From a bacterium (GTDB lineage Bacteria > Methylomirabilota > Methylomirabilia > CAVQYV01): a stretch of DNA of 19,880 nucleotides. The position numbers were made by a program, and so were the translations under genes. Numbering within the stretch: the stretch's first letter is position 1; each line of letters starts with the position of its first letter. Where the stretch lies: positions 1 through 19,880 of the forward strand of contig JAZDMQ010000001.1 in NCBI GenBank assembly GCA_043800755.1, in the 5' to 3' direction. Below, piece by piece: positions 1 to 19,880 of the stretch. The notes under the pieces were generated by a model, which worked only from the letters and a program-made list of their open reading frames with translations, had not been told where the DNA came from and did not search any database.

Positions 1-141
1 CACAAACAAGTGGGGTCAAATCTTTATTCTTGAGTCAATTTCCCTTTGATTCCCTCCATCCGCGCCGCCAGGCCTTTACCTTTTCCCAACAGGGTGTGCA
101 GCTTCTTCCGGCCGACACTCACTGAACTATAATCGATTCCC
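1..141 (+). repeat. Terminal direct repeat, copy 1 (identical to 19740-19880)
   Basis: CACAAACAAGTGGGGTCAAATC...ACTATAATCGATTCCC matches the last 141 nt of the window base for base. Confidence 0.97.
12..33. repeat. Left inverted repeat of the RAYT-like element (contains the transposase stop codon)
   Basis: 22/22 reverse complement of 1053-1074. The TAA stop (TTA at 24-26) lies inside it. Also present at 19751-19772 in the terminal repeat. Confidence 0.92.
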
Positions 142-1019
142 AGTAATTCTCCGATCTCACGCTGATTCAGCCCCCCATATCGGTAGAGAAATTCCATCAG
201 GACCGGCCGGGCGATGCCCCGATTGCCCCTTTGGAGTAGGTCTTCCCGGCTCACCTGGAATTCCATGGCCACTGCCTCCAGAATCCTCTCGGGCTCCACC
301 TCCCCTATCACTTTTCGGATCGCGGGGACCTCCCGGGACCGGGGCTGGCCAGAAAGGAATCCCTCTTTCATCCTCTCCAGGAATGCCGCGGATCCGATGA
401 TTCCATGCCCCTTCCCTCTTTCCAGAGGATTCTCCATTCCCCTTGTCAATCCCTCCTCCACAAAATCCCGATACTGCTTTCTTCCCTCGGGCGTATCGCC
501 TTCAAAGTAGGCCAGGATCTCCCGGACTTGCAGAAAGGATCTCCCGGCTCGAGGGGAGAGGTACGTGGGATAGCTGCTCCACTGATACTTCCTGAGATAC
601 TCCTTCTTTTCTGCCAAAGCCTTCCTGGCCTTGCCCTGGGAGCGAAGGGGGTTGAGGTGGACATAGCGAGAAACCTCTTGGAGATACGAATCCGCATCAA
701 TGAGGAAGGCCTTATAGCGTCCCTGATAGAGATGGCCCGTCCTTTCGTGGGCGCGATTGAAGTAAGAGGTATAAGAGATGTTGAAGTGGCGCATGAATTC
801 CTGGAGATTGGCCCGAGGGGTCTTGACCAGCAGATGAAAATGATTGGCCATCAGGACGTAGGCCAGCACCTCCACCTGGTAGACCTCGGCGGAGCGGGCC
901 AGTAGCCTCAGGAAGACCGAACGGTCCAGATCCTGGACATAGATCTCCTGACGGGCATTGCCCCGGCAGGTAACATGGTAATAGGCGTTCTCGAATTGGA
1001 TGCGGAGGGGACGGGCCAT
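24..1019 (-). CDS. REP-associated tyrosine transposase-like HUH endonuclease (Y1_Tnp) with C-terminal DnaA_C-like HTH domain
   Basis: MARPLR..YYHVTCRGN N-terminus, HUH motif YVLMANHFHLLV, GHLYQGRYKA, catalytic Tyr region SRYVHLNP, YQWSSY. The C-terminal ARPVLMEFLYRYGGLNQREIGELLGIDYSSV resembles Bac_DnaA_C. Confidence 0.92.
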   Translation of the reverse strand: MARPLRIQFENAYYHVTCRGNARQEIYVQDLDRSVFLRLLARSAEVYQVEVLAYVLMANHFHLLVKTPRANLQEFMRHFNISYTSYFNRAHERTGHLYQGRYKAFLIDADSYLQEVSRYVHLNPLRSQGKARKALAEKKEYLRKYQWSSYPTYLSPRAGRSFLQVREILAYFEGDTPEGRKQYRDFVEEGLTRGMENPLERGKGHGIIGSAAFLERMKEGFLSGQPRSREVPAIRKVIGEVEPERILEAVAMEFQVSREDLLQRGNRGIARPVLMEFLYRYGGLNQREIGELLGIDYSSVSVGRKKLHTLLGKGKGLAARMEGIKGKLTQE

Positions 1020-1026
1020 GGCGGAG

Positions 1027-1056
1027 AGGGTAGCAGAGGGAGGGAAAGAAAGTCAA
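1027..1056 (-). promoter_or_regulatory. Putative sigma70 promoter for the transposase, probably giving a leaderless mRNA
   Basis: Minus strand: TTGACT (1056-1051), 18-nt spacer ending in TGc, TACCCT (1032-1027). ATG is at 1019 with no Shine-Dalgarno. Confidence 0.5.
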
Positions 1057-1074
1057 GAATAAAGATTTGACCCC
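1053..1074. repeat. Right inverted repeat of the RAYT-like element
   Basis: TCAAGAATAAAGATTTGACCCC, exact reverse complement of 12-33. Confidence 0.92.
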
Positions 1075-1112
1075 TATCCTCCCCCTATCCTCGATGACCC
1101 CTATCCTCCCCC
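1068..1112 (+). repeat. Nested junction duplication at the right element end
   Basis: TGACCCCTATCCTCCCCC at 1068-1085 and 1095-1112. CCCCTATCCTC occurs three times (1071, 1082, 1098). Confidence 0.9.
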
Positions 1113-1164
1113 ACTCTTCCTTCCAGCCGGCCTGACCTCGGCTGCCTGATTCATGATTGGAGGC

Positions 1165-1194
1165 AGGGGCAGAAATGGCCCTGCCCCTTTTGCT
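1165..1194 (+). terminator. Probable intrinsic terminator
   Basis: 8-bp stem AGGGGCAG (1165-1172)/CTGCCCCT (1181-1188), 8-nt loop, then TTTGCTT. It lies 15 nt after a TGA at 1147-1149. Confidence 0.5.
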
Positions 1195-1360
1195 TCTCAA
1201 CGAAGCTGCAACCGCATGAAAAAATTATCGACAAGACAAACCTTGAGGAAGTAGATAGGGATTAAACGAAAAGGAGCCAATTCAACAACTTAGACTGATC
1301 TCCAATCCTCCATTTCCTCTTCTAATGTAAGGCTCGGGAGGCTCGGAGGAGTGGATGAGA

Positions 1361-1408
1361 ACAGGCGCCGGATAGATCTTTTGGCACAAGGTCACGGCGC
1401 CTTTTGTG
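1361..1408. repeat. Structured hairpin repeat, copy A
   Basis: 37/48 identical to 2151-2198. Stems AGGCGCCG/CGGCGCCT and GATCTT/AAGGTC. Confidence 0.7.
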
Positions 1409-1681
1409 CCTACGAGAAAATTGGAGGCACCTTTGCTGACCTACAGCTGACCCTTCAAAGACCAGGGAAGGGAGAAGGAGGGAGGTGCATCTCTCCTCAT
1501 CGAAATCCTTTCTGGAATCAGGGTTATAGAAAAGGCGAGGACGGACAAATCTCTCGCCTGGATCCCGACTGCAAGAGCCCTCAGGGTAGGTTTACCCCAA
1601 AGGGCTTTTTGTATGGTAAACCCGAAGGGTCTCCCATCGGGACTCTTCACCGTATAAAGGAGGTGATTAAGTATAAGAACG

Positions 1682-2412: not shown

Positions 2413-3525
2413 TCAAGCAGGGGCCTTACCCAGCAGGTAAGGAAGGATTTCGTCGATGTTTACGTACTGCTTCACAAGATGCTGAGCTTGCTGTATCTTC
2501 TCGATTTCGTCAGGAAGCATCTTGAAGACCATGCACTGAACCCTCGCTGTGACCGGGTAAGTGTCCTCCTCTGATACCAATACGGGCAAACCAGAGCATT
2601 CGACGAGAGAAAGGATGGCTGGATGGAGGGCAAAACCGCCAGTAAGGAGGAGGGCGACAACCCCTTCCTCCCGACTACTTCGTAAAAGACCGCTATTGGC
2701 CGCCAGCAATATGTTATCGATGCGATCACCGGGGGTTATCATAAGGGAGTGCGGTCCTATCCGCGGGAGGACATTCTGTGGCTCCATTGCCGCCACCAAT
2801 ATGTTATGGACCTGCCTATCCAGGAATCGTTCACCACAAACCACCTCAGCCCCGAGCTCTCGGGCGATTTGCCCCACCTGTGGATAGGTAAGTCTCACAT
2901 CATAGGGAATAGCCCCAAGGAATCTAAGCCCCAAGTTCGCCAGGCCCTGTCTGAGCATTTCTTCAATGTGCTGGCGTTTCTCTGGCCAGACCTTGTTGGC
3001 CACCACGCCGATTACTTGCACCTTTTCGATCTGGAATAGGCCCAGGTTGAGGGCTACTTCATCGATCGTGCTGCCGACCCCACCTTCCACCACCATCAGC
3101 GCCCGTGCGCCGAGCAAGGAGGCAACTTCTGCGTTGGACAGGTCAAGGCAGGACCCCACACCCGCATGTCCTGTGCCCTCGATCACTATTACATCACACC
3201 CCTGGGCAATCTGTTGGTAAGACTCGAGGATCGCCCTCTTGAGCGGCTCAACATTCCGATTGAAAAGGTAGCCTTCGACAAATCCCTTGGGCACCGTCAC
3301 CGGACTCATCTTCGCCAGCCCGCTATCGATCGACAGCGCCGATTGAATCAGCACAGCGTCTTTATCTATCCTCACCCCCTGCTGCTCCACTGTCTGTTGT
3401 CCCACCGGTTTAAAAAAATGCACTCTGAGCCCGCGTTGCGTCAAGGCGTGCATCAGACCAAGGGAAACGGTGGTTTTACCTACGTGTTGGCCGGTGGCAA
3501 CGATGTAAAGGTTTCGCGGAGCCAT
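2413..3525 (-). CDS. BioD-like P-loop (AAA_26) + DRTGG-domain protein (phosphotransacetylase N-terminal-domain family, no catalytic PTA domain)
   Basis: LYIVATGQHVGKTT Walker A-like motif, FFKPVG, VIVIEGTGH, GVVANKV, ITPGDRID and LLLTGG DRTGG-type motifs. ATG 3525 overlaps the upstream TGA and has a GGGGAG RBS. Confidence 0.85.
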   Translation of the reverse strand: MAPRNLYIVATGQHVGKTTVSLGLMHALTQRGLRVHFFKPVGQQTVEQQGVRIDKDAVLIQSALSIDSGLAKMSPVTVPKGFVEGYLFNRNVEPLKRAILESYQQIAQGCDVIVIEGTGHAGVGSCLDLSNAEVASLLGARALMVVEGGVGSTIDEVALNLGLFQIEKVQVIGVVANKVWPEKRQHIEEMLRQGLANLGLRFLGAIPYDVRLTYPQVGQIARELGAEVVCGERFLDRQVHNILVAAMEPQNVLPRIGPHSLMITPGDRIDNILLAANSGLLRSSREEGVVALLLTGGFALHPAILSLVECSGLPVLVSEEDTYPVTARVQCMVFKMLPDEIEKIQQAQHLVKQYVNIDEILPYLLGKAPA

Positions 3526-4157
3526 CACCACTCCCCATTCTGGAGGCGACCCACCAGTCTCTCCGAAAGCACGACTATATCCTCTACTGACAAGAAAGAC
3601 ATTATATAATCGGGGTAAATGAAGGAGGCATTCGGTTTGAATTCCTCGTCTCCCGCATACCAGGCGATGGCTACCGGTATAGACGGAAAGACCTGAAACC
3701 GAAAGCCCTGGTCTCCCCCTTCGAAGTGCTGGGCACCGAGGTGAAGACTCGCCTCAACAAAGGTATCGCGATCCCGCCCGGCGGTGGCGCAGAGTCGATC
3801 CAAAACGCGCCTGCGGTGAACGCCCTCGTAGCCCCGAGCCTCCATAATGTCGCCAAAGCTTATCCAGCGAGCGAATTTTGGGTACGGTGGCCGTGCAGAA
3901 AGGTAGTGCAGGGCCAGTATTTGCCATTCCACCCGAATTCCGGCCTCCGCCTCGGCCGCATTGCCTTTGACTGAGATTTTCTCCTCTCTTAGGTTCACCA
4001 GAAACCGGCCCTCCAGCACGGGAAGCTCGTAGCATCCGCTTCCTGTCTCCACCGCACCAAGGGCGGAAAGATATTGGCTGTTCCGGGTACGCACAGCCTC
4101 AAAGGCGCGGGCGAGGGCTTCTTGGTAAGGAGATTGTCTCTCGGGCGGCTTTATCAC
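3525..4157 (-). CDS. DUF3786-domain protein
   Basis: QILALHYL..WISFGDI..G..Y..GD..F.FQVFP.IPV....YAGDEEF.PNA....D.....LSVEDI pattern. GTG start with GAGG RBS. Confidence 0.8.
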   Translation of the reverse strand: MIKPPERQSPYQEALARAFEAVRTRNSQYLSALGAVETGSGCYELPVLEGRFLVNLREEKISVKGNAAEAEAGIRVEWQILALHYLSARPPYPKFARWISFGDIMEARGYEGVHRRRVLDRLCATAGRDRDTFVEASLHLGAQHFEGGDQGFRFQVFPSIPVAIAWYAGDEEFKPNASFIYPDYIMSFLSVEDIVVLSERLVGRLQNGEW

Positions 4158-4185: not shown

Positions 4186-4980
4186 TCAGGCGCCGCGCAT
4201 CCGGTAAGCTTCGAGAAAGGAATCGCAGTAAATAGTCTTTTGGAGAAGTAGTTCGGTTGCAATGCCAGCGTTCATGAGTTCCGTATCGAGGGGGTCGAGG
4301 ATCACCGAGTCCATGCCCGCCGTCAGGGCCATCACAAGATAGGTGCGATTGATGAGCCGACGCTCATTGCAGCCCTGAGAGACATTGGAGAGGCCGAGTA
4401 AGAGTTGGGGCGGGGGGCTGCTGAGTAGCCTGAGTTGCTGCAGTGCATTCAGAACATTGGCGGGAGCCGCAGGCGCTGCATTCACCGGAATGATGATGGG
4501 ATCGATGAAGTAGCTATCCATCGGTAGCCCGCACTCCATTGCCTTGGTTGCTATGAGCGCTCCCAGTTCGACCCTCTTCTCGGCATCGGATGGAACCCCC
4601 TTTTCGTCGATGGTGAGGGCAATGAGAGAGGCGTTGTTCTCTATGGCCAGACCCATGTATCTCTCCAGTTCGGCCTCGTCTGCCTTACAAGAATTGATGA
4701 TGGCGCGGCCAGGGACATTGGGCACAACTTCCTTCTGCACTTCCCATTTGGGGCTGTCAATGGAGAGAGGCACATCCGTGACTTCGCGCACCGTATTCAC
4801 CAGCCACATCATCGCCTCAATGGGTTTATCGCTGGCGGGCCCCACGTTGAGGTCAAGGGCCTGGGCATTTGCCTTCACTTGAGCGAGCGCGACATTTTGA
4901 ATAGCCTGTTTGTCTTTCTCCACTATCGCCCTGCGCACATCTTTGAACATGCCGTTTATTCGTTCACCGATGATATACAT
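4186..4980 (-). CDS. acsE: Methyl-THF:corrinoid iron-sulfur protein methyltransferase
   Basis: MYIIGERINGMF, LDLNVG, LSIDS, IINS, FIDP, GLSNVS pterin-binding barrel motifs. AAAGGAGA RBS; acs operon context. Confidence 0.95.
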   Translation of the reverse strand: MYIIGERINGMFKDVRRAIVEKDKQAIQNVALAQVKANAQALDLNVGPASDKPIEAMMWLVNTVREVTDVPLSIDSPKWEVQKEVVPNVPGRAIINSCKADEAELERYMGLAIENNASLIALTIDEKGVPSDAEKRVELGALIATKAMECGLPMDSYFIDPIIIPVNAAPAAPANVLNALQQLRLLSSPPPQLLLGLSNVSQGCNERRLINRTYLVMALTAGMDSVILDPLDTELMNAGIATELLLQKTIYCDSFLEAYRMRGA

Positions 4981-5001: not shown

Positions 5002-5979
5002 CTATGTGGCCATTGAAGCAGCTTCGGCGACCAACCTGTCGATAGCCTTACGCACCAAGGCTATCGCCTTGGGATGCCTAAGTACGAGAAGATCCGCACC
5101 CGCCTGCAGGTAGTTGGTGGCGGTAAGCCCTTCCCAAAGGAAGCCACGCTCCTCGGCGGGGCCAAAACCGGGTAGTGCATCTTCAGAGGCCTGAGCCTCC
5201 TTGGCGCTCCAGGCCTCCCTCCCTACATCGCAAAGCACCGGCTGCTGCAGCAGGGGGTCTCCTCCGAGACCAGCGATTCTGGCCCGCTCCATGATGCTAT
5301 AGACATATTCGAAGCCATAGCCCATGGCAGCGGAGGTGGGATACATAACGATGTTTTCGGGCGGATAGCCTGCATCGTGTGCGAGTATGTTGACCTGCTT
5401 GGCGATATTGATATCGAGGGGAGATTCGGCGATAAGTTTGTGGCCGTCGGCGAGGCAAGCGGCGACCAGGGTACGGTAATTCTTTTCTGTGATGGTGCCG
5501 AACAGACAGTTCTTGCCTTTTGCCACTTCGCTGCATTTAGGAAGGACAGTATTATCCTTTTCCTCCAAACCGCAGCCCCACACGATGAGCGGCAAGTCGA
5601 TTGCAGAGAGCACCCCTTCGAGCACCTTGGCGGCTTCATCGGCCCCTCGATCACCCCTGTCAGGGTGGGTTCCTATAAGCCGGAGACATATCAGGTCAGG
5701 ACCCAGTTCTGCGGCCCGTTTTGCCCACTCCATCGGGTTGTCGATGACGTCGCCATACTGTTTCCTGAGCTCCTCGGGCCACGATCCGGCACCTGAGTCC
5801 CAGATTTCGACCGCAATGGCAGGTCGATTCCCTGCCTCACCTTCATAGGCCATCCAGGGGATGCACTTCGCCCCTCCAATGGTGACCGACTTTCCATGGC
5901 CGCCGTTGCCGGAAGCAGCTCCGATGGTTACCCGGTTGATGGCCGCAGACCAGCGCTGTGCAGTCTCTTTCGCCTTCAT
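5002..5979 (-). CDS. acsD: Corrinoid iron-sulfur protein small subunit (CdhD/delta)
   Basis: PAIAVEIWD, ESPLDINIAKQVN, MGYGFEYVYSIMERARIAGLGGD, AWSAKEA, AGADLLVLRHP. Confidence 0.95.
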   Translation of the reverse strand: MKAKETAQRWSAAINRVTIGAASGNGGHGKSVTIGGAKCIPWMAYEGEAGNRPAIAVEIWDSGAGSWPEELRKQYGDVIDNPMEWAKRAAELGPDLICLRLIGTHPDRGDRGADEAAKVLEGVLSAIDLPLIVWGCGLEEKDNTVLPKCSEVAKGKNCLFGTITEKNYRTLVAACLADGHKLIAESPLDINIAKQVNILAHDAGYPPENIVMYPTSAAMGYGFEYVYSIMERARIAGLGGDPLLQQPVLCDVGREAWSAKEAQASEDALPGFGPAEERGFLWEGLTATNYLQAGADLLVLRHPKAIALVRKAIDRLVAEAASMAT

Positions 5980-5989: not shown

Positions 5990-6757
5990 TCATTTTGACA
6001 AAATCACTTGTCCATTGGCGATACAGGCCTCAAAAAGCCTTGCAAACCCTGGCGGCAGTTTCGCCGACAGCACGCTTTTTTCCTCTATCGCCAGTTGTGC
6101 CACGCCCTCGTCAAAAAGCAGCGTTACAGTCGAATCGAACCCTTCCATTGGCAACGCCCCATACACTTCCTCGGAAATCCCGGTAGGGGGGACTTTATTC
6201 CATACCAGCACGCGCCGCCCTATCCTCACGGGAAGACTTCTCGCAAGTTCCACAATTCTGGCAGCCGTGCGAGCACTTACCAAGGTCGGTTCGCTGAGCA
6301 CTACCAGGCAGTCGATATCGTCCGTATTCATGCGCGAGAGATGCTCCATGCCCGCCTCATTGTCTACCACCGTCACCTTGTAGCCTCCCCTTAGAGTGGC
6401 GAGGGCGGCCCGCAGCAGGGTGTTCACGTAACAGTAACAAACCTGGCCCTCGGGTCGACCCATTATAAGAAGATCGAACCCGGCAGACTCAATGATGCAT
6501 TCTTCGAGTTTGAACTTTAACATCCTCTCTTTGGGCACACCGGTGACTGAAGCCTTCGCCCGCATGATCTCCTCGCGTACATCGCTTATGGTCCGTCCTG
6601 GGGTCAATCCAAGGAGAGGTGCCAGAGTGCTGTTGGGATCAGCATCCACTGCCAAAACCGGGCGGATTCCCTCGTACAGTAATAGCCTTACGAGAGAGGC
6701 CGTCACCGTAGTCTTGCCAGTACCTCCTTTGCCAGTAACCGCTATGAGGTAACCCAT
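5990..6757 (-). CDS. acsF: CooC/AcsF-type nickel-insertion ATPase (likely ACS A-cluster maturase)
   Basis: IAVTGKGGTGKTT deviant Walker A, VDADPN, CYC metal motif, DNEAGMEHLSR. Start taken at MGYLIA (6757). The AcsF assignment rests on position inside the acs operon. Confidence 0.85.
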   Translation of the reverse strand: MGYLIAVTGKGGTGKTTVTASLVRLLLYEGIRPVLAVDADPNSTLAPLLGLTPGRTISDVREEIMRAKASVTGVPKERMLKFKLEECIIESAGFDLLIMGRPEGQVCYCYVNTLLRAALATLRGGYKVTVVDNEAGMEHLSRMNTDDIDCLVVLSEPTLVSARTAARIVELARSLPVRIGRRVLVWNKVPPTGISEEVYGALPMEGFDSTVTLLFDEGVAQLAIEEKSVLSAKLPPGFARLFEACIANGQVILSK

Positions 6758-6764
6758 GAAAACC

Positions 6765-8702
6765 CTACCTATTGGATATCCTGGCCTGCAGGGATGGAAA
6801 CTCCTCGATATGAGTATGTGGCAGGAAGCAAGCGGAGGTGAACTCCTCCATGAAGGTTGGATCCGTGCTGAGTTCAAAGTACGTCATGGAGCCAGCCAGC
6901 CGCTTCGCCTCTGCAAAGCGCTCACGATTCAGCAACGCCATCTTGGCGCCCGCTGCCGAAGTGTTGCCCGCAAACCGAAGTTTGTGGGGATCCACATCCG
7001 GAAGGAGACCGATGAAGACCGCGTTCTCCATATCGAGGTAGTGGCCGAATGCGCCGGCAATCATTACTTCCTCGAGATCAGAGGCTTTAAGCCCGAGGGA
7101 CTTCAACAGGACTTTGGTTGCAGCATAGATGGCACCTTTAGCCCGCAGGAGATTCTCTATGTCGGCCTGCGTTATGACCAGGTCGCGGCTGGCACCCCTT
7201 TCGCCCGCCCCCACGATAACGAATTCCCTTTGGCCATCGGTGCCCTCCCGCAGGTTCTCGAGACCACATTGGGGATTGAATCTTCCCGACTTGTCAATAA
7301 CGCCCATAAGCAGCAATTCCGCCAGAAGGTCCACATATGCAGTACCGCAGAGGCCTGCCGGTGGCTCGTCTCCGATCGTAGAGTAGCTGAAACGGCTGTA
7401 CCCACTCCAGCCGCGAATGTGATCGATGGCACCGCGCATGGCCCACATACCGTGTCGGGTGGTGGCGCCTTCGAAGGCAGGACCAGCCGAGGCACTCGCA
7501 CAAACCATCCAGTCTTTGTTGCCGATGGCCACCTCGCCATTGGTGCCGACGTCGATGAGCATCCTGGGCCTCTCCGCCTCTGCCATGCCGATTGCCATAA
7601 CACCAGCAGTGATATCCGCGCCCACAAACGCGCTTACGCAGGGGAGGGAATAAAGGAGGCCCCGCGAATTAATAGTGAGGCCAACCTCCGCAGCGCGGAA
7701 CGGCGGCGGCTGGTATGTCGCGCCGACATACGGCTCCGGCCGGATCCATGTAGGATTGATGCCCAGCAAAAGATGCATCATGGTAGTGTTTCCGGCGGCA
7801 GCAATCACGCTGATGTCGGAGACGCTGATGCGGAGCTGGTTTTGAAGTTCTCTGATGAGAAGGTTGATGTCTTCGATGATGCGGTCGTGGAGCTGCTGAA
7901 GGCCGTCTGGCTGTTCGGAGCACCAGAGGATGCGGTGAATGACATCAGCGCCGTAGATGGCCTGCGAATTGTACTTGGCGGCAGTACCCAATGTCTTGCC
8001 AGTCTGCAGGTCAACGAGATAGGTGACAATGGTCGTGGTCCCCACGTCCACGGCGACTGCAAGATTCCGCTTGCAGGTGTCTCCCGGGGCCACTTCCGTG
8101 ATCTCGGTCAATGCCCCTCGGTAGGCCGTGGTAGCAGTAACTCGGTGTCCCGCCTGCCGGAGCACATCGGGCAGCGTGCGGATGACCTTGAGGCCCATCT
8201 GGAACTCGCCGCCCCCGACGGCGTGGCGCAGTGCGTGCTCCAGGCGATCGAGGTCTGCACGGTTATAACTTAGGCTCGGCGCTGGTACTTCCAGGTAGTA
8301 TTTCTTGACCAATGGATCGAGGATCGTGGGGCGGCGTTCGAGGACGGCAATTTCGCTCAGGCGCTTTTCGCCCGCATCCACTTCGATGATTCGCGCTCGG
8401 ATCCGCGACTCCGGTGGGACTTCTACCACCAGGTCGCCCGCAATCCGGGCCTCACAGGCCAGAATATACCCCTCTCTGATCTCGTGGCGGGTAAAAAAAT
8501 CCGTGGTTCCGCCCACAACCTCGCCCTCGCGCACAATGACGCGGCATTTTCCACATACCCCTTCGCCCCCGCACAGGCTGTCTATGAATACACCCGCTTT
8601 TCTCGCCGCATCCAAAATGGTCGTTCCGAGCGGAACCTCGACCTTCAACTCGTCCGGCTGAAATTCCAGGGTGCACGTCTTGTTTCCCTTTTCCGCACTC
8701 AT
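6765..8702 (-). CDS. acsV: Reductive activator of CoFeSP (RACo): [2Fe-2S] + ASKHA ATPase
   Basis: CGGEGVCGKC...LAC ferredoxin domain; DVGTTT, YGADVI.RI, DVGTNGE, SAGPAFEG, GLCGT, AGAFG. ATG 8702 overlaps the acsC stop (ATGA). Confidence 0.92.
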   Translation of the reverse strand: MSAEKGNKTCTLEFQPDELKVEVPLGTTILDAARKAGVFIDSLCGGEGVCGKCRVIVREGEVVGGTTDFFTRHEIREGYILACEARIAGDLVVEVPPESRIRARIIEVDAGEKRLSEIAVLERRPTILDPLVKKYYLEVPAPSLSYNRADLDRLEHALRHAVGGGEFQMGLKVIRTLPDVLRQAGHRVTATTAYRGALTEITEVAPGDTCKRNLAVAVDVGTTTIVTYLVDLQTGKTLGTAAKYNSQAIYGADVIHRILWCSEQPDGLQQLHDRIIEDINLLIRELQNQLRISVSDISVIAAAGNTTMMHLLLGINPTWIRPEPYVGATYQPPPFRAAEVGLTINSRGLLYSLPCVSAFVGADITAGVMAIGMAEAERPRMLIDVGTNGEVAIGNKDWMVCASASAGPAFEGATTRHGMWAMRGAIDHIRGWSGYSRFSYSTIGDEPPAGLCGTAYVDLLAELLLMGVIDKSGRFNPQCGLENLREGTDGQREFVIVGAGERGASRDLVITQADIENLLRAKGAIYAATKVLLKSLGLKASDLEEVMIAGAFGHYLDMENAVFIGLLPDVDPHKLRFAGNTSAAGAKMALLNRERFAEAKRLAGSMTYFELSTDPTFMEEFTSACFLPHTHIEEFPSLQARISNR

Positions 8703-12448: not shown

Positions 12449-13264
12449 CTATCGCTTCCCGATTCCCCGATTCAAATCATGCCCGTTCAGCACCTTCTTG
12501 AGAGTTTCGCCAAACGTCGCACCACGACATGCATAGCACGTTCTGGCTAACTCCTCTGGTAAGCTGACTCTATGGCGTGCCTCTTCGATCTGTTTTGCGG
12601 TCTCGAAAAACTTCCCGCATACGCTGCACTTCACCATCTCCAGACGAATGTTCAGGCCCCTCAGGACTCGTTCGCCATCGATATCCTCATAGCGGATGGC
12701 CCCGGTGGGACAGACGAAGACGCAGGCGCCGCAGCCAATGCATTCCCTTCCCTGGTCGCCATAGGGAGTAGTGATGAACCTCTCCATCCCGCGGTTCGCA
12801 TAACCAATCGCGTGCTGGCCGACCACATCGTCACAGACGCGAACACAGAGTCCACAGAGTATGCAGTCCTCCGGGCCGGGCGGATGTCCCACCGGAAATC
12901 TGGCCGCTTCGATGCCATATTCACTGGCCAATCCCCGAATAGGCTTCGCCCCGGGACAGCGTGCCAGCAGAAGCTCGATTACCATGCGCCGGGCGCGCCG
13001 AACGCGCTGGTTATTCGTTTCTATCCTCTCGTTTTCCCAAGGCTCGTAAACGCAGGAGGTGACGACCTTTGAGCGTTTTCCCCAGAAGGCCTCCACCAGG
13101 CAGAGTCGACAGGAGGCATAAGGGGAGAGCGACTCGTGGTGGCAGAGAGTGGGGATTTGAATGTCGTGCCGCCTTGCCACATGCAATACCGTCTCTCCGG
13201 GGGCGGCCTCTACGCTCTGTCCGTCCAGGATGAATTGCACACCTTTTTTTTCTTGTTTTTCCAT
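12449..13264 (-). CDS. HydA/NuoG/HoxU N-terminal-like Fe-S subunit with no catalytic domain
   Basis: IPTLCHH..SCRLCLVE..TSC [2Fe-2S]; CILCGLCVRVC and CIGCGACVFVCP 2x[4Fe-4S]; C-terminal CSVC...CYAC; 271 aa. Confidence 0.88.
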   Translation of the reverse strand: MEKQEKKGVQFILDGQSVEAAPGETVLHVARRHDIQIPTLCHHESLSPYASCRLCLVEAFWGKRSKVVTSCVYEPWENERIETNNQRVRRARRMVIELLLARCPGAKPIRGLASEYGIEAARFPVGHPPGPEDCILCGLCVRVCDDVVGQHAIGYANRGMERFITTPYGDQGRECIGCGACVFVCPTGAIRYEDIDGERVLRGLNIRLEMVKCSVCGKFFETAKQIEEARHRVSLPEELARTCYACRGATFGETLKKVLNGHDLNRGIGKR

Positions 13265-13278
13265 GAGTTGCCGCTTCC

Positions 13279-15189
13279 TTATGTCACATCAATTGCCTGG
13301 TGCCGGCAGGTGTCGGCACAGATTCCGCATTTCGTGCACTGGGAAGGATCAATGGCATGAGGCTCCTTCCTCTCCCCGGCAATGGCGTTGGCCGGGCATG
13401 CCTTGGCGCACAGTGTGCAACCCGTGCAATTTTCGGGCAGAATCCGGTAGGTGATGAGGGCCCGACAGACCTTAGCGGGACATCTCCCTTCCTCGATGTG
13501 GATCCGATATTCCTCGGCGAAGTATTTCAGGGTCGTCAACACCGGGTTGGGGGCAGATGTCCCCAACGCGCAGAGGGAGGCCTCGGCGATCCCAGTGGCC
13601 AATTCCTCCAGCAACTCGATATCGCCTGGGCGACCTCGTCCTCCACAGATGTCTTCCAGGATTTCGAGCATCCGCGCCGTCCCCTCGCGGCACGGTATGC
13701 ACTTGCCGCACGACTCCTCCTTGAGAAACGCCAGGAAGTACCGGGCCACGTCCACCATACAGGTGCGGTCGTCCATGACAATCATCCCGCCGGAACCCAT
13801 CATCGAGCCCAACTCGGTGAGACGGTCGAAATCGACAGGCGAATCCAGATACTCTGCTGGTATGCACCCTCCGGAGGGCCCCCCGGTCTGAACGGCCTTA
13901 AATTGCCCGCCCTCAGGAATACCGCCGCCAATATCCTCAATCACTTGCCTCAGTGACATCCCCATTGGCACTTCCACCAGCCCGACTCGATTCACCTTGC
14001 CCACCAGCGAGAAGACTTTTGTGCCCTTGCTGCCCTCTGTTCCGATATCCGAATACCACTTCGAACCTCGGGCGATGATCACCGGGACGTTATTCCAGGT
14101 CTCCACATTGTTGAGGCAGCTCGGCTTACCCCAGAGTCCGCTTTCCACCGTATGAATGTATTTGGCGCGTGGTTCTCCAACACGTCCTTCCAGCGAAGCC
14201 ATAAGCGCAGTGGATTCACCACAAACGAACGCACCAGCGCCCCTGTTGATCCGAATGCGGAAATCATGGCCAGAACCAAGGATTTTTTCACCCAAGAGGC
14301 CGTATTGCTCAGCCTGCTTCACTGCAACTCGCAGGCGATTGACCGCCAGGGGATATTCTTCTCGCACATAGATGTAGCCTGTATGGGCTCCTATAGCATA
14401 CGATCCGATTATCATCCCTTCGATGACACTGTGCGGATCGCCCTCAACGATGGCACGATCCATGTAAGCGCCTGGATCACCCTCATCGGCATTACAAATC
14501 ACATATTTGGGATCGCCGTGAGCCCGACGACAAGATTCCCATTTACGCCCCGTGTGAAAACCACCGCCCCCGCGCCCCCTCAGCCCGGATGCCTTTATCT
14601 CCTCGATGATTTGCTCTGGTTTCATCTCCAAGAGGGCCTTTGCAGCGGCGGCATACCCTCCCATGGCGATATACTGGTCGATCGACGAGGGATCTATGGA
14701 ACCACAATTGCGCATGGCAATATACATCTGATGGCGGAAGAAGGGTATTTTCGAGTAAGGAGGAACCTTCTGTATCTGGACAGACAATTTGCCGCGCCGG
14801 TATCTCTTGTTTGTCCCTTCGATCAAGAAAGGCTCCACATCGATTCGCCCTACTACCCGTTCCTCATACACTTCACCCTCGGCCATAGCCCGCAAGAGCT
14901 TCGGGATATCCTCTGAGGTAACCCGACCATAGGTGATCCGGGCCTGGCCGGGTAGGATCACATCCACGAGAGGCTCGAGGAAGCATGCACCTTTACAACC
15001 TGTCTCAATGACCCGAAGATCCAGTTCCTGCCTCTTCATCTCATCCTGCAAAGCGTCAAATACTTTCCGGGAACCAGCGGCAAGCCCACAGGTCGCCATG
15101 CCGACAAGCACCCTCACCTTGCCGTCAAAAAGGGCTTTACAGGAGGAAGCCCGCGTCTCATGTAATTGCTGTGGCGTCCCGATTTTCAC
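13279..15189 (-). CDS. HydB/NuoF-like FMN/NAD(P)H-binding diaphorase subunit
   Basis: SGLRGRGGGGF, CNADEGDPGAYMDR, GAGAFVCGE, NNVET, GGPSGG, ESCGKCIPCREG..SLC, HIEEGRCPAKVC, C-terminal 2x[4Fe-4S]. N-terminal thioredoxin-like GMATCG..GCKGAC domain. Confidence 0.93.
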   Translation of the reverse strand: MKIGTPQQLHETRASSCKALFDGKVRVLVGMATCGLAAGSRKVFDALQDEMKRQELDLRVIETGCKGACFLEPLVDVILPGQARITYGRVTSEDIPKLLRAMAEGEVYEERVVGRIDVEPFLIEGTNKRYRRGKLSVQIQKVPPYSKIPFFRHQMYIAMRNCGSIDPSSIDQYIAMGGYAAAAKALLEMKPEQIIEEIKASGLRGRGGGGFHTGRKWESCRRAHGDPKYVICNADEGDPGAYMDRAIVEGDPHSVIEGMIIGSYAIGAHTGYIYVREEYPLAVNRLRVAVKQAEQYGLLGEKILGSGHDFRIRINRGAGAFVCGESTALMASLEGRVGEPRAKYIHTVESGLWGKPSCLNNVETWNNVPVIIARGSKWYSDIGTEGSKGTKVFSLVGKVNRVGLVEVPMGMSLRQVIEDIGGGIPEGGQFKAVQTGGPSGGCIPAEYLDSPVDFDRLTELGSMMGSGGMIVMDDRTCMVDVARYFLAFLKEESCGKCIPCREGTARMLEILEDICGGRGRPGDIELLEELATGIAEASLCALGTSAPNPVLTTLKYFAEEYRIHIEEGRCPAKVCRALITYRILPENCTGCTLCAKACPANAIAGERKEPHAIDPSQCTKCGICADTCRHQAIDVT

Positions 15190-15203
15190 AATTTCCCACT
15201 TCG

Positions 15204-15677
15204 CTATCTATAGAGTTTGAGGATCTTAGTGATATTGTTCGGCCGAAGGTCGCCGTAAACCTCTTGGTCAATCATGAGGACCGGTGCCAATGAGCAGCAC
15301 CCGAGGCACCGGACGCTCTGGACAGTGAACACTCCATCCTTCGTGGTTTGGCCATCATCGACTCCCAGCTCCGCTCGGAGGATGTTATCGATCTTCTCTG
15401 CGCCCTTGACATGGCAAGCTGTGCCCCGACATATGCTGATGATATGCTTGCCCCGAGGGACCAGGCTGAAGGCCTTAAAGAAGGTGGCGACATGATATAC
15501 CCGGGCCCGAGAAGTACCGAGAGCCTCGCCGGCGCGATCCAATATCTCGCGCGGCAAGTAGTGGCACTCCTCCTGGAAATCTTGTAGCACGGAGATGAGG
15601 GAGGACGGCTCTTTTGGATACCTCTCCAGGATCTTGCTGATCACCCGATCGGTGTCAATGTGGGCCAATTCGCTCAC
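15204..15677 (-). CDS. HydC/NuoE-like [2Fe-2S] subunit
   Basis: VATFFKAF, ICRGTACHVKG, VRCLGCCSLAP. GTG overlaps the cooF stop; GGAGG RBS. Confidence 0.93.
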   Translation of the reverse strand: MSELAHIDTDRVISKILERYPKEPSSLISVLQDFQEECHYLPREILDRAGEALGTSRARVYHVATFFKAFSLVPRGKHIISICRGTACHVKGAEKIDNILRAELGVDDGQTTKDGVFTVQSVRCLGCCSLAPVLMIDQEVYGDLRPNNITKILKLYR

Positions 15678-16204
15678 TTCTTGCCTCCATCAAGCGACCG
15701 CTCGATCTGCACCAGGAAGGCCTCCCGCTTGGCCTCCAGTATCTCGTCCAGGGGCTTGTATTGCAGCGCCTTCGTCGGGCACGCCGAGACGCAGGCAGGT
15801 ATTCCGCCCAAGGCGACCCGTTCAGAGCACTCATCGCACTTGATAATGGTCTGACCCTCGCTGTCCATCCTGATCACGCCAAAGGGGCACGCCAAGATGC
15901 ACCATTTGCATCCGATGCACAGTTCATGCTTGATGTACACCGGGCTCTCTTCACTTGCCCTTTGGATCGCCTTGGTGGGGCAAATCTCCACGCAGGGTGC
16001 ATTCACACATTGACGGCACTGAAGAGGCACCGCCCCATTTCCAGCCGCCACCACCCACACCCGAGGCAGCTGGCGCGGCGTCTCCCAAACGGCCCCCACG
16101 AGTTCCTTGGCGCGCGAATGCTCCACAACACAGGCCAGTTCGCAACTGCGACATGCCAAGCATCGCGAAATATTAATGTACAGGATACTACGTTTGCCTT
16201 TCAT
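15674..16204 (-). CDS. cooF: CooF-like 4x[4Fe-4S] electron-transfer protein
   Basis: CLACRSCELAC, QCRQCVNAPCVEICP, CIGCKWCILACPFG, KCDEC..PACVSACP. ATG 16204 with GAGGAG RBS, directly after cooS. Confidence 0.88.
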   Translation of the reverse strand: MKGKRSILYINISRCLACRSCELACVVEHSRAKELVGAVWETPRQLPRVWVVAAGNGAVPLQCRQCVNAPCVEICPTKAIQRASEESPVYIKHELCIGCKWCILACPFGVIRMDSEGQTIIKCDECSERVALGGIPACVSACPTKALQYKPLDEILEAKREAFLVQIERSLDGGKK

Positions 16205-16267
16205 CAGTTGACTCCTCGCTGCCCTGAAGCCCATTTGCAGCACGGCTACCTGGAAGAGGAAGAATTC

Positions 16268-18208
16268 TCAGCCCACAAGCACGGGCTCGGACACCTCATC
16301 CAGTTTACGCGGCGCGTACATGATGGGCCGCAGATTGAGTTCTATCCTTTTCTTATCGATGTGGGCAATCATGAGTTGCGCTCCCTTCACCGGATCCGGC
16401 TCGAACTCGAAGCGGCCGCCGAAGATATTCTCGATATCGCCGCAGATGAAGTCCATGACTTCCTTGCTGCCCAGCACCGGCAGGTTGGTGCCGAGCACGG
16501 TGTAGACACCCGAGGCGATGACATAGAAGCCGATGGCTACCGCCTTCTCGCTCATCCATTCGGGAGCGGCGCCGGCCACCGGAAGGTCGGCAATGCTCGT
16601 TCCAAGCCCGCCCTCTTTCACCACATTGCAGCAAACGGTGAGGATGCGGCTGATGTCGACGCAGGAGCCGAGGTGGAGGATGGGAGGAATTCCGACAGCA
16701 CGGCAGATTTCCCGAAGGCCTTCACCAGCCCACTCCTCTGCTGCCTCGGGTCTCAGGAGACCGGCCTTGGCATTGGCGATGGCGGAGCAGCCCGTAGTCA
16801 GAATGATCACATCGTGGCGCAGGAGCTCCTTGGCCATTTCGACATGGCCATAGTCATGGCAATGCTTGGGGTTATTGCAGCCGACGATTGCCGCTGCCCC
16901 GCGGAGCCGACCGCTCATCACGGCGTCATTGAGTGGACGGTAGGTGGCGCGGAATTTGCCGCCGAGAAAATCGTAGATGCTCTCGGCGGTGAATCCGGCG
17001 ACGAGGTCACTCCGGATGTCGGGAATCGTCGCTTTCCCCTTGCGGTTGGGGAAGTTCTCGATGCCGGCCCGCACGATCTCCTTGGCAACCGCCATAGCGC
17101 GGTCTTCGCGGAACTCGATATGTTGGGCGTAGGGAAACTTCGCCTTGGGCGAGGTGGAGATGAAACGGGTATGGAAGCAGGAGCTGAGTTCACCGAGGGC
17201 AGGGAATACACACTGCACATCGACGACCATCGCGTCCACCGCACCGGTGGCAATGGCCAGTTCCTGCTGCAGGAAGTTGCCGGCGACGGGGATGCCATGG
17301 CGCATGAGGATCTCATTCGAGGTGCAGCAGATACCGGCGAGGGAGATGCCTTTGGCGCCCTTTTGCTTGGCGAGTTCGATGAGTTCTGGGTCCTGTGTGG
17401 CAACAACGATCATGTCCGAAAGCGTCGGTTCATGCCCATGGACAATAATATTCACCTTTTCCTCTTCCAGCACGCCGAGATTGACCTGGGACCGCAGGGG
17501 ATGTGGCAAACCAAAGAGGACATCAGAGAGCTCCGTGGCAATCATGGATCCGCCCCAGCCATCCGCGAGGGCCGCCCGAACTCCTTGCAGGATGATGTTC
17601 CGGGGGTCGTTGTCCACCCCCATGGTGGTCCGATGCATGATCTCGACAATTTCTCGATCGATTCCCCGCGGCATGACGCCGTTTTCGCGCCAGCGTCGCT
17701 GTTGATCTTGGGGGGCTCTTTTCGCGAACTGGAGCTCTCCATGTTGCTGCCCGAACTGGGAGAAGGCTCGTTCGGCCACATCACGGGCTACTTCCTCTTT
17801 GCTTCTCCCTTTCTCCGGGATGCCAAACTCACGGGCCAGAGCCCGCACTTTGCTCTCCCCCTTCACCTTGTAATCGCCCTTGCCTTCGGCGGCCATGAGG
17901 AGCGTGTGGGCAACGTCCCGCCCGTGGTCGGAGTGTGCGGCGGCACCGGCCGCAATCATCCGAGCGAGGTTTCTGGCGGCAATGATATCGGCGGTAGCGC
18001 CGCAGATGCCGCGTTTAGGACCTTCGCCAAACGGATCGATGCGGCACGGCCCCATGGTGCAAATGCGACAGCAAATTCCCAACTCCCCGAAACCGCATTG
18101 GGGCTGCATAGCATCGTAGCGATCGAAGGCCAATTCGATGCTCATACCCGAAGAAATATCGATCATGTGACAAGATGCTGCATCTATGCTGCGCTGCTTG
18201 TTGTCCAT
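16268..18208 (-). CDS. cooS: Anaerobic Ni,Fe carbon monoxide dehydrogenase catalytic subunit (CooS/AcsA)
   Basis: CGFGELGICCRICTMGPC..ICG (D/B clusters), HSDH, HGHEP, GICCT, DVQC, GCNN, TGC, GSCVD, MSEKA. Start is ATG 18208 (AAGGAG upstream); 18235 or 18277 are possible. Confidence 0.97.
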   Translation of the reverse strand: MDNKQRSIDAASCHMIDISSGMSIELAFDRYDAMQPQCGFGELGICCRICTMGPCRIDPFGEGPKRGICGATADIIAARNLARMIAAGAAAHSDHGRDVAHTLLMAAEGKGDYKVKGESKVRALAREFGIPEKGRSKEEVARDVAERAFSQFGQQHGELQFAKRAPQDQQRRWRENGVMPRGIDREIVEIMHRTTMGVDNDPRNIILQGVRAALADGWGGSMIATELSDVLFGLPHPLRSQVNLGVLEEEKVNIIVHGHEPTLSDMIVVATQDPELIELAKQKGAKGISLAGICCTSNEILMRHGIPVAGNFLQQELAIATGAVDAMVVDVQCVFPALGELSSCFHTRFISTSPKAKFPYAQHIEFREDRAMAVAKEIVRAGIENFPNRKGKATIPDIRSDLVAGFTAESIYDFLGGKFRATYRPLNDAVMSGRLRGAAAIVGCNNPKHCHDYGHVEMAKELLRHDVIILTTGCSAIANAKAGLLRPEAAEEWAGEGLREICRAVGIPPILHLGSCVDISRILTVCCNVVKEGGLGTSIADLPVAGAAPEWMSEKAVAIGFYVIASGVYTVLGTNLPVLGSKEVMDFICGDIENIFGGRFEFEPDPVKGAQLMIAHIDKKRIELNLRPIMYAPRKLDEVSEPVLVG

Positions 18209-18309
18209 TATTTCGGCATCTCCTTCCTCTGACATGTCCTTACTGTTTTTGGCCCCGGACTCCTTCGCGTCCACCACGTCTATTTATTGTTGCCTTTACA
18301 CCGCCTTCT

Positions 18310-18336
18310 ATTATATCCTTCTGTCATATTAGTCAA
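18310..18336 (-). promoter_or_regulatory. Candidate sigma70 promoter of the cooS-acs operon
   Basis: TTGACT (18336-18331) and perfect TATAAT (18315-18310), but only a 15-nt spacer. Confidence 0.4.
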
Positions 18337-18508
18337 GTTTTTTTCCCCAGTCCCGGGGAAGAATAGGACAGATTTTGGCTTTGGTGCGGGAAACGGGAGA
18401 ATTCATCCACATCCTTCTTTTTGGTGCAGCTAATAGGAATGGAGATTCACCATTTGCCTGGATACAGGATACAGATCACACAATCTTTCCCGTAAGGAGG
18501 CGACCTAA

Positions 18509-19288
18509 TTGAAGCTTGCTATTTCAGGAAAAGGTGGGACCGGTAAGACGACTTTGGCTGCGCTACTGGCCCGGACTCTTACTGAGGAGGGCCGGCCCGT
18601 CATCGCCATTGATGCAGACCCCGACGCGAATCTCGCTTCCGCTTTGGGGCTACCCCCTAAGGACTGGCCAGAGCCTATCAGCGGAATGAAGGAGCTCATC
18701 TACGAACGAACCGGCGCAAAGGGTGGTTATGGGTCATTCTTCAGAATGAATCCGGATGTACATGACCTGCCGGAGAAGTTTAGCCGAGTGGTGCACGGCG
18801 TGCGGCTGCTCGCCTTGGGGGAAGTGCCTCTGGGCGGAGGCGGCTGCATATGCCCGGAAAGCGCCCTCTTGAAAGCGCTGATCACGCACCTGCTCCTGAG
18901 ACCGGAAGAGGTGGTCATCCTGGATATGGAGGCCGGCATCGAACATCTGGGGCGCGCGACCGCCGAGGCAGTGACCATGATGATCATCGTGATCGAGCCA
19001 GGGCTGAGGAGCGTCCAAACCGCACAGACCATAAGCCGGTTAGCCAAGGATATCCGGATCGCAAAGCTCGGCGTGGTCATAAACAAAGTCGCCCCGGGAA
19101 TGGACCTGCGCCCTTTGACAAGCCATCTAATAGACCTGCCTCTCCTTGGCACTTTGTCCCTCGACCCTGCAGTAGCCCTGGCCGACTTTGAAGGTCGCTC
19201 TCCTTTCACCGGAAAGGATCCACAGAAGAAGGAAGTGCGGGCTATTCTGGAGGCAATTCTCTCCCAGGGTGGCGAAAAGGGGAGGTAA
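18509..19288 (+). CDS. cooC: CooC nickel-insertion ATPase (CODH maturase)
   Basis: MKLAISGKGGTGKTT, IDADPDANL, GGGGCICPE, DMEAGIEHLGR. TTG start with AAGGAGG RBS; divergent from cooS. Confidence 0.93.
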   Translation: MKLAISGKGGTGKTTLAALLARTLTEEGRPVIAIDADPDANLASALGLPPKDWPEPISGMKELIYERTGAKGGYGSFFRMNPDVHDLPEKFSRVVHGVRLLALGEVPLGGGGCICPESALLKALITHLLLRPEEVVILDMEAGIEHLGRATAEAVTMMIIVIEPGLRSVQTAQTISRLAKDIRIAKLGVVINKVAPGMDLRPLTSHLIDLPLLGTLSLDPAVALADFEGRSPFTGKDPQKKEVRAILEAILSQGGEKGR

Positions 19289-19595
19289 TTAGCAATTTCC
19301 CGAGCGGAGTCGGCTGCCATGCAACCACGAAATGGTCACGTAATTGCAACCTGATGCCCATCCATGATTTCTCTCATTTCCTGGGACCTTTGGGTTATGG
19401 GCCAACCGTTAAGAATAGAACAGTCTGGAGCACGCTGGAAAAACCCTTCGAATTTTAACCTAACTTCCGCGGCGACCAGGTCGTTTTGGGCTTTTTCTGC
19501 CCTGGTCACGTGTGTAAGTCCTTGTTTTCTCGAGTGCGGGCCTCCGAAAATTGCCATAATAGTGACGAAGTGATCTAAAATATTACTTGGCATAA

Positions 19596-19731
19596 ACGGA
19601 TCATCTGCTCGTTGGGGGAGTCTGGCCCCCGGAGCACTGGCGCCAGCTCGCCCACAAGCTGGACGCGGCCCTCGCGGGGCAGTTGTCGCTGGCCGGGACG
19701 GAGGCCCCGCTGGACCCCGGCAAACACAAGT
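19596..19731 (+). pseudogene. Orphan GC-rich coding-like fragment running into the element's left end
   Basis: Open frame TDHLLVGGVWPPEHWRQLAHKLDAALAGQLSLAGTEAPLDPGKHK with strongly GC3-biased codons, preceded by an in-frame TAA (19593-19595) and no clear start. Confidence 0.35.
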
Positions 19732-19758
19732 GGGGTCAACACAAACAAGTGGGGTCAA
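19723..19758 (+). repeat. Nested junction duplication at the left element end
   Basis: ACAAGTGGGGTCAA at 19726-19739 and 19745-19758. AACACAA at 19723 and 19738. Confidence 0.88.
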
Positions 19759-19880
19759 ATCTTTATTCTTGAGTCAATTTCCCTTTGATTCCCTCCATCC
19801 GCGCCGCCAGGCCTTTACCTTTTCCCAACAGGGTGTGCAGCTTCTTCCGGCCGACACTCACTGAACTATAATCGATTCCC
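19740..19880 (+). repeat. Terminal direct repeat, copy 2 (left IR and 3' end of the transposase gene)
   Basis: Identical to 1-141. Confidence 0.97.

Follow-up and report, generated by a model that had tools for sequence, protein, structure and literature searches.

Contig JAZDMQ010000001.1 of assembly GCA_043800755.1, analyzed here over its whole length of 19,880 nt (hereafter, the window), carries a carbon monoxide dehydrogenase/acetyl-CoA synthase (CODH/ACS) operon next to a small element with an HUH-type transposase, and its two ends are identical, which raises the question of whether the operon belongs to a circular or amplified mobile unit or to an ordinary chromosome. On balance, the probable answer is a chromosomal operon with direct copies of the element that were collapsed, and outer flanks that were lost, in assembly. 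Bases 1–141 match bases 19740–19880 exactly, and the unit without the overlap is 19,739 bp long, as had been stated in the initial annotation; no other terminal overlap was found in the contig, and the window has a G+C content of 56.8% and does not contain a single N. The value 141 is the largest default k of the assembler MEGAHIT, and the overlap (1–141) had rightly been read as a sign that the assembly graph closes on itself here, not as the length of a biological repeat. According to the available part of the CheckV paper (Extended Data Figure 3 legend), terminal repeats are often of the same size as assembler k-mers, and circular templates are cut by assemblers at a random place, leaving a repeat of k-mer size.

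Position 1 of the contig (equivalent to 19740) is the first base of the second copy of a 19-nt tandem pair (19721–19739 and 19740–19758) and lies 11 nt outside the left inverted repeat of the element, at its outer edge; for a randomly placed break, the chance of lying at most 1 nt from one of the four such boundaries is about 6 × 10−4. Because the contig start coincides with the element edge and with the second 19-nt copy, the break is unlike the random opening of a circle. When a MEGAHIT unitig begins at a node with two incoming paths and comes back to that node, it carries an overlap of size k from the first shared base; loops made after the pruning of tips or thin branches also begin at former branch points. 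A pure loop might open at the k-mer that is smallest in the edge order of MEGAHIT, although with multithreading its start is non-deterministic. Given this mode of unitig building, the break may be a former branch point, and its position suggests that the left end of the element also occurred in other surroundings in the sample. The break at the element edge also favors collapsed copies over a clean circle. Both junctions between the cargo and the element must exist in the reads, and therefore the element brackets the operon, at least at the population level.

The element, a TIRtron of about 1.09 kb on the minus strand (1–1085, the outer limits being putative), comprises the transposase gene between its two terminal inverted repeats, with a further stretch of about 11 nt beyond each repeat. 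The left repeat (12–45, 34 nt), which has GGGGTCAA at its start and shares bases with the transposase stop codon, pairs with the right repeat (1041–1074); 30 of the 34 positions are complementary (88%), versus at most 25 of 34 in 60 dinucleotide shuffles of this region, which confirms the single element bounded by inverted repeats that had been proposed earlier. The repeat start fits seven of the eight positions of the GGGGWSAS motif, with A where S is expected. The last 18 nt of the element (1068–1085) are copied exactly at 1095–1112, a sequence beginning with TGACCCC; this 18-mer has two exact matches in the window, whereas none of 200 shuffles gave two or more. At the other side, 19740–19758 is identical to 1–19, and the preceding 19721–19739 is a degenerate copy of these first 19 nt (17/19), the period-19 match covering exactly these bases. 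The heptamer GGGGTCA (19731–19737) is the reverse complement of TGACCCC (1095–1101), and the outer copies face each other. Each flank copy consists of an inverted-repeat tip and the 11 nt outside it, and the ends of the element were therefore placed at about 1 and about 1085, the right limit being the end of the exactly duplicated 18-mer and the left limit being the start of the contig and of the second 19-mer. The element thus sits in a palindromic site similar to repetitive extragenic palindromic (REP) sequences and resembling its own ends, which suggests that it was inserted into a site derived from those ends. Element end motifs were found in the window at the element edges only, and the repeat motif was absent from the 80 related CODH/ACS loci described below.

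The transposase (24–1019, minus strand; 331 aa; Pfam Y1_Tnp, E-value = 2.6 × 10−15) combines an HUH-Y1 domain with a C-terminal helix-turn-helix (HTH) domain similar to domain IV of DnaA (approximately residues 240–328). The HUH motif, H60-F61-H62, is intact, with H60 and H62 invariant in 18 of the 18 aligned family members, and Y102, the putative catalytic tyrosine by alignment to RAYT motifs, is kept in 17 of the 18. The Pfam match to Bac_DnaA_C (22.9 bits) is below the cut-off of that family (31.5), the nearest NCBIfam family, REP_Tyr_transpos, scores 64.9 bits (cut-off 80), and transpos_IS200 scores 20.5 bits, far below its cut-off of 55. The phmmer search of PDB with the transposase gave no match, and the family profile reached only DnaA domain IV (8btg_A, residues 240–328, E-value = 9.7 × 10−4). 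In the AlphaFold model, which is of moderate quality (mean predicted local distance difference test score of 62.9, about 70–90 in both domains) but confirms the HUH fold, the Foldseek matches to IS608, ISDra2, and RAYT structures had E-values from about 2 × 10−5, the value for the ISDra2 and IS608 TnpA proteins, to 8 × 10−5; the RAYT 4er8_A was superposed with a root-mean-square deviation (rmsd) of 2.8 Å over 126 columns, and the DNA-binding domain of DnaA 3pvp_B with a target-normalized TM-score of 0.86 and an rmsd of 1.4 Å. Homologues of the transposase bear the PF08299, PF13518, or PF13384 domains.

According to the available part of Quentin et al. (2018, PMC6006769), TnpA_REP subclass 2.1 is characterized by Bac_DnaA_C, HTH_23, or HTH_28 C-termini and by the absence of REP sequences nearby; such genes were named TIRYTs and the corresponding units TIRtrons by Di Nocera et al. 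(2013, PMC3733652), whose available text describes terminal inverted repeats with GGGGWSAS in most but not all cases, sometimes overlapping the 3′ end of the gene. Having a Y1 HUH nuclease domain with the HUH motif and tyrosine, a C-terminal domain of the Bac_DnaA_C/HTH_23/HTH_28 group, and long terminal inverted repeats, not REP hairpins, the transposase is assigned, as judged from its sequence and model, to this known kind (TIRYT/TIRtron) as a new member. Thus, the description of the element as RAYT-like was right as regards an HUH-Y1 gene bounded by inverted repeats, but its class is TIRYT/TIRtron, which had already been described.

The search with the transposase gave 2,774 homologues at E-value ≤ 0.001 among 6,029 candidates, and 119 besides that of the window were listed. 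Among these listed homologues, 42 of the 119 had a longest recorded contig of less than 1,500 nt, the shortest being 1,061–1,104 nt, which is about the size of the element, whereas in the control with the DRTGG gene of the operon, only 12 of the 120 matches listed fell below this limit, and 17 of 120 below a limit proportional to gene length (Fisher's test, p = 2.5 × 10−6 and 1.6 × 10−4, respectively). Judging by these element-size contigs, the TIRYT family seems to multiply like an insertion sequence (IS) in uncultured anaerobes. Homologues were also found on large genome contigs of up to 290 kb, the relative with 90% identity (P0002) was recorded on a contig of 12,645 nt, and the best plasmid-borne relative in PLSDB had an identity of 33%, with no close one among the records. 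It was also observed that relatives at 58–78% identity are very often alone on contigs of 1.06–1.5 kb and that some clusters of TIRYT relatives reach 84 member sequences, the named members coming from Desulfobacterales and Thermodesulfobacteriota bins.

According to the favored explanation, the window would represent the chromosomal CODH/ACS operon of an uncultured bacterium beside a TIRtron. In the sample, the left end of the element adjoins the operon end that carries the second CooC gene (CooC2), and its right end adjoins the DRTGG end; identical copies of the element would thus lie on both sides of the operon, whether within a single genome or in different strains, and a de Bruijn assembler would have merged these copies and lost or pruned the outer flanks, leaving a cycle with a 141-nt overlap that begins at the outer edge of the element, this edge being the branch point. 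If two direct copies are present, homologous recombination, not the transposase, could excise or amplify the operon.

The relatives of the operon are chromosomal. A scan with AcsB over one genome per species yielded 97 confirmed stretches, and 80 of them were retained; the matches span all 725 residues of AcsB, and the best relative (73% identity) comes from an Armatimonadota bin. The run CooS-CooF-NuoE-NuoF-HoxU-AcsB-AcsC-RACo-CooC-AcsD is complete in 12 of the 80 related loci, where it lies on genome contigs with the NuoE/NuoF/HoxU trio between CooF and AcsB, and locus L004 has all 14 genes in the same order as in the window. The contigs of this set reach 224 kb, and it also includes chromosomes of 1.4–1.6 Mb, which bear a shorter form of the cluster without the trio. 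The flanks of eight loci were scanned, and the genes recognized there were ordinary chromosomal ones that differed by lineage, for example, ribosomal protein L25, PRPP synthetase, and GHMP kinase in L005, hydrogenase, MTHFR, and panB/panE in L010, and a sigma-54 two-component pair in L001. AcsB was detected in 1 of the 72,556 plasmid records of PLSDB, and the size of that record is 2.63 Mb.

Between the AcsB of the window and ten further full-length sequences of this protein, 1–7 of the 725 residues differ, the longest contigs of those sequences ranging from 2,613 to 23,336 nt; the variant with a single difference was recorded on the 23,336-nt contig, which is longer than 19,739 + 141. Short-read assembly of a closed 19.7-kb circle could give no contig longer than the unit plus k, and this contig therefore counts against a free circle. 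In the sister lineage, AcsB is 93% identical to that of the window, the DRTGG protein 83–86%, and the transposase 89–90%, that is, the divergence proceeded in step; in addition, the codon usage of the transposase gene is that of the cargo (log-likelihood ratio (LLR) of 0.235 versus a cargo mean of 0.221, standard deviation 0.065), and the G+C content is also the same. The element therefore appears to have resided in this type of genome for a long time and is not regarded as a recent vector.

It should be noted that a number of points weigh against this explanation. At even depth, an arrangement X–R–cargo–R–Y, where R is the element, should break the contig at both element edges instead of closing a cycle, and the explanation therefore requires that the outer flanks were lost, whether by tip removal or because coverage or local depth was low. 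The cargo is exactly one functional module without any unrelated gene. The flank copies 19721–19739 and 1095–1112 are halves of one palindrome, as would be expected if the element had inserted once into a unit that was already closed or tandem. The 23,336-nt contig is known by its recorded size and its AcsB, and the contig-size figures are given per database cluster and may be incomplete. Moreover, the 90%-identity cluster has 23 members for the transposase versus 22 for the DRTGG protein, with no sign of many copies in this lineage.

Some of these points speak for a real cycle, in which the operon and one element would exist as a 19.7-kb circle or a multi-copy tandem array, formed by recombination between direct copies and outnumbering the chromosomal flanks. 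Under this explanation, the unbroken passage of the contig through both element–cargo junctions, the restriction of the cargo to exactly the operon, and the complementary palindrome halves would be expected; there is also a precedent in TnCO-1, which shows that a circular extrachromosomal element, at about 2.2-fold coverage, can carry Wood–Ljungdahl genes (available part of PMC12056078). However, the break point lies at the element edge, a near-identical AcsB occurs on the 23,336-nt contig, the window does not contain a replication function, and the relatives are chromosomal, which makes a real cycle a rather doubtful, although serious, alternative.

A chimera of strains is improbable to a greater degree. 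In this case, the element would be located on the DRTGG side in one strain and on the CooC2 side in another, at similar palindromic targets, and the two junctions would have been stitched together. The population appears heterogeneous, with at least 11 AcsB variants a few residues apart in public data, and both flank copies resemble the element ends, as would be expected if such sites were preferred; however, insertions would be needed exactly at both ends of the same 18.6-kb segment, with the element identical over windows of at least 141 nt, and no trace of two strains was found in the window. HUH nucleases also include plasmid Rep proteins. Nevertheless, an autonomous small replicon with the HUH protein as a rolling-circle initiator, not a transposase, is very improbable even though its C-terminal domain matches domain IV of DnaA and a link of this domain to replication was raised by Quentin et al. 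(PMC6006769, available part), since the gene lies between terminal inverted repeats as in other TIRYTs, its homologues often occupy element-size contigs as well as genome contigs of up to 290 kb, its best relative among PLSDB plasmids is distant (33% identity), and CODH/ACS is absent from true plasmids (AcsB in one record of 72,556, 2.63 Mb in size).

The set of structures proposed in the initial annotation (a circle, a tandem amplification, or a collapsed composite) remains right, with the weights shifted and a strain chimera added to it. As to the proposal that the operon would be mobile or amplifiable cargo of a RAYT-type element, the cargo is not bounded by element ends in the right orientation anywhere in the sequence, and recombination between element copies would be the source of any mobility. 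Nothing suggests that the TIRYT itself moves cargo, whereas recombination between its copies would, and no cargo carriage or movement by TIRYTs is mentioned in the available parts of PMC6006769 and PMC3733652.

The transposase homologues were found near AcsB in 2 of the 80 related loci (L009 and L039), and an association of TIRYTs with CODH/ACS is not claimed, as Y1 genes occur in too few loci. In L009, from a Verrucomicrobiota bin, a homologue with 35% identity (73–1023, minus strand) is located 4 kb from the CODH/ACS cluster; phenylalanine replaces the conserved tyrosine (RFRA versus RYKA), and, judging by this replacement, the protein is probably inactive. No inverted repeat was found in the available part of this locus, the contig ending 72 nt past the gene. 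The 65% homologue P0014 was recorded on a contig of 31,895 nt, and the contig of the Omnitrophota AcsB locus L047, of which the analysis covered 10125–31895, is also 31,895 nt long; if these contigs are the same, another TIRYT would lie at most about 16 kb from a CODH/ACS cluster.

The operon was characterized by Pfam and NCBIfam scans of the 21 main open reading frames (ORFs) of the window, 6 of which had no family and either overlapped other genes or were located in the margins. All genes from the DRTGG gene to CooS lie on the minus strand. The Ni-CODH catalytic subunit CooS/AcsA (16268–18277; TIGR01702, 660.8 bits, cut-off 478) is followed by a CooF-like 4Fe-4S ferredoxin (15674–16243; Pfam Fer4_11, E-value = 5.3 × 10−20) and by an electron-transfer trio (12449–15677) recognized by Pfam/NCBIfam as NuoE-like (15204–15677), NuoF-like (13279–15189), and HoxU/NuoG-N-like (12449–13264). 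Next come the acetyl-CoA synthase AcsB (10100–12277; CODH_ACS_al_bet, 990.4 bits, cut-off 800), the large (gamma) subunit of the corrinoid Fe-S protein AcsC (8699–10036; PRK04165, 509.4 bits, cut-off 306), and the reductive activator of the corrinoid protein RACo/AcsV (6765–8771; Pfam RACo_C_ter, E-value = 2 × 10−92, Raco_middle, RACo_linker, and Fer2); the NCBIfam score of AcsV (603.6 bits) is below the cut-off of 800, and the four Pfam RACo domains support the assignment. A CooC/AcsF-type nickel-insertion ATPase (5990–6877; Pfam CbiA, E-value = 3.2 × 10−11) matches its family from residue 45, and its true start is probably downstream of 6877. The small (delta) subunit of the corrinoid Fe-S protein AcsD (5002–5979; NF003376, 380.1 bits, cut-off 280), the methyltetrahydrofolate:corrinoid/iron-sulfur protein methyltransferase AcsE (4186–4980; PRK07535, 273.6 bits, cut-off 259), a DUF3786 protein (3525–4157; Pfam, E-value = 2.6 × 10−29), and the DRTGG/AAA_26 protein (2413–3531; Pfam AAA_26, E-value = 1.1 × 10−35, and DRTGG, E-value = 3.9 × 10−25; NCBIfam PRK05632, positions 3–368 of 708), encoded by the last gene, complete the operon. 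Divergent from it, on the plus strand, lies the gene of the second CooC-type maturation ATPase, CooC2 (18509–19288; Pfam CbiA, E-value = 1.6 × 10−19), which is 75% identical to the gene of like position and orientation in L001.

Thus, a bacterial CODH/ACS cluster with AcsA/CooS, AcsB–E, the corrinoid activator, and the CooC maturases is present and intact; the earlier description of a complete carbonyl-branch operon with its maturases is upheld, CooS, AcsB, AcsC, AcsD, and AcsE scoring above their NCBIfam cut-offs. Neither Pfam nor NCBIfam revealed Rep, integrase, phage, or housekeeping families among the 21 ORFs, in agreement with what had been read from the sequence. Replication, partition, or transfer genes were likewise absent from these ORFs, the ParA-like matches being the two CooC genes, and the initiator, partition, or transfer genes of a plasmid or autonomous replicon are thus lacking. 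The tRNA search of the window was negative, and the only Rfam match was meaningless (E-value = 0.89, 19 bits versus a threshold of 37). The product of the DRTGG gene corresponds only to the N-terminal half (AAA_26 and DRTGG) of phosphotransacetylase-family proteins and lacks their catalytic PTA domain; according to the tblastn table, at least 15 of the 80 related loci also have such a gene close to the end of the operon.

Phylogenetic analysis of AcsB was performed with FastTree using the window and 65 of the 80 loci, the remaining 15, including apparent intein carriers, being omitted for the lack of a single full-length match. The window was sister to L001, L003, L013, and L057 (SH-like support 100). 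The CooC2 gene on the opposite strand is common to the window and to L001, L013, and L057, that is, to three of the four loci of this clade, and marks a sub-type of the cluster over bins labeled Nitrospirota and Planctomycetota. The order of the 14 genes is common to Armatimonadota, Latescibacterota, Planctomycetota, Lentisphaerota, Omnitrophota, and Syntrophobacterales bins; since the bin labels are the submitters' names, this mixture of phyla is not proof of transfer. In seven Omnitrophota loci (L011, L014, L019, L020, L022, L032, and L034), the AcsB match ends at residue 506 or about 600, and AcsC begins approximately 2 kb later; forms of AcsB of 1172–1252 aa with the intein/LAGLIDADG domains PF14528 and PF14890 were also found (P0337 and P0357). 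To judge from these sequences, the early-ending matches look like cases of an intein inside acetyl-CoA synthase.

The margins between the operon and the element, namely, 1113–2412 and the stretch from CooC2 to the element (19289–19720), had been described as gene debris, which was not found by Pfam, tblastn, atlas look-ups, or codon usage. None of the 32 stop-to-stop frames of at least 40 aa in 1020–2450, 18278–18520, and 19280–19760, which were searched in Pfam up to an E-value of 1, had a match better than an E-value of 0.01, and none reached a family cut-off; 70 margin frames of at least 20 aa gave no tblastn match in the 80 related loci, and two atlas look-ups of margin sequences returned nothing usable. 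The codon usage of the margin ORFs (LLR from −0.31 to +0.06 per codon) differs from the cargo mean of 0.221 (standard deviation 0.065), the mean of 70 off-frame controls being −0.265; the ORF at 19336–19758 (minus strand) has an LLR of −0.149 and a G+C content at third codon positions of 0.46. According to the absence of matches and the codon usage, the margins look non-coding. The first margin, downstream of the operon, contains two diverged direct copies of a module (1130–1420 and 1955–2210; repeats D3 and I6) that align with 74% column identity and have no family, RNA, or homologue matches; the second margin is also without matches. Terminator-like hairpins occur in each module copy, that at 1155–1200 having a z-score of −2.58 and the other three being weaker (from −1.36 to −1.59), and a terminator-like site was found at 1165–1188. 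Both copies include a G+C hairpin with a run of T and another conserved box, of 51 nt, with TTTTGTG at its end, and one stem pair, as judged by eye, is changed from G-C to A-T between the copies. These copies may be terminators or small RNAs.

A possibility considered only tentatively, and less than likely, is that in nature the CODH/ACS operon as a whole, with a bracketing TIRYT element, forms a 19.7-kb circle or occurs as a tandem amplification. If this were true, the unit would be a natural equivalent of TnCO-1, which evolved in the laboratory, and a candidate for spreading the 14-gene cluster, and its persistence might be aided by the HUH protein, which has a DNA-binding domain of the DnaA type; if the loop were real, the carbonyl branch of the Wood–Ljungdahl pathway would be amplifiable or transferable as one piece in the environment, which would bear on the patchy distribution of the cluster across phyla. 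The main lesson is one of caution, namely, that a terminal overlap of k-mer size gives only weak support for circularity if it begins where a repeat element has its edge. A well-defined TIRtron was obtained as a by-product, together with an apparent activity of its family above that which the available parts of the TIRYT literature ascribe to it.

Among the known systems, REPtrons with their RAYTs (4ER8), which were reportedly treated by Nunvar in 2010 and Ton-Hoang in 2012, share with the element the HUH-Y1 fold and the location of the gene between inverted copies of a short repeat; however, the flanks in the window are not REP hairpins, the protein is about twice as long and has an added HTH domain, and its NCBIfam score is below the cut-off for a strict REPtron/RAYT (64.9 versus 80 bits). 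The IS200/IS605 elements IS608 and ISDra2 are similar in their catalytic fold and motifs and presumably in single-strand chemistry, but they have subterminal hairpins and no terminal inverted repeats, which the element of the window does have, and the transpos_IS200 score of 20.5 bits (cut-off 55) also places it outside this group. In composite transposons and IS-bracketed translocatable units, the cargo between direct copies can likewise be excised or amplified by recombination, whereas the second element copy is here only inferred. TnCO-1 of Thermoanaerobacter kivui is, according to the available part of Hocq et al. (2025, PMC12056078), an 85.8-kb circle with much of the Wood–Ljungdahl locus and an IS1182-type transposase. 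It emerged under CO in the laboratory, and long reads, PCR of the junction, and a 2.2-fold coverage provided the proof. Because TnCO-1 was shown experimentally, the general idea of Wood–Ljungdahl genes on a circular amplifiable transposon is already in print. Both TnCO-1 and the window combine Wood–Ljungdahl genes and a single transposase gene on a self-closing sequence; they differ in size, in transposase family, and in that TnCO-1 is proven, while the window offers a k-mer overlap in a metagenome contig alone. The closest likeness is to TIRtrons, with which the element shares a Y1 HUH transposase of about 330 aa, the C-terminal Bac_DnaA_C/HTH domain, long terminal inverted repeats in place of REP hairpins, a repeat start close to GGGGWSAS (seven of eight positions), and the overlap of one repeat with the 3′ end of the gene. 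It differs from them in the last motif position (A, not S) and in the copies of its terminal 18–19 nt in each flank; in addition, whereas the available literature describes TIRYTs as poor repeat producers that are mostly single-copy, the relatives of the element in the window (58–90% identity) are very often found on element-size contigs, which suggests active multiplication.

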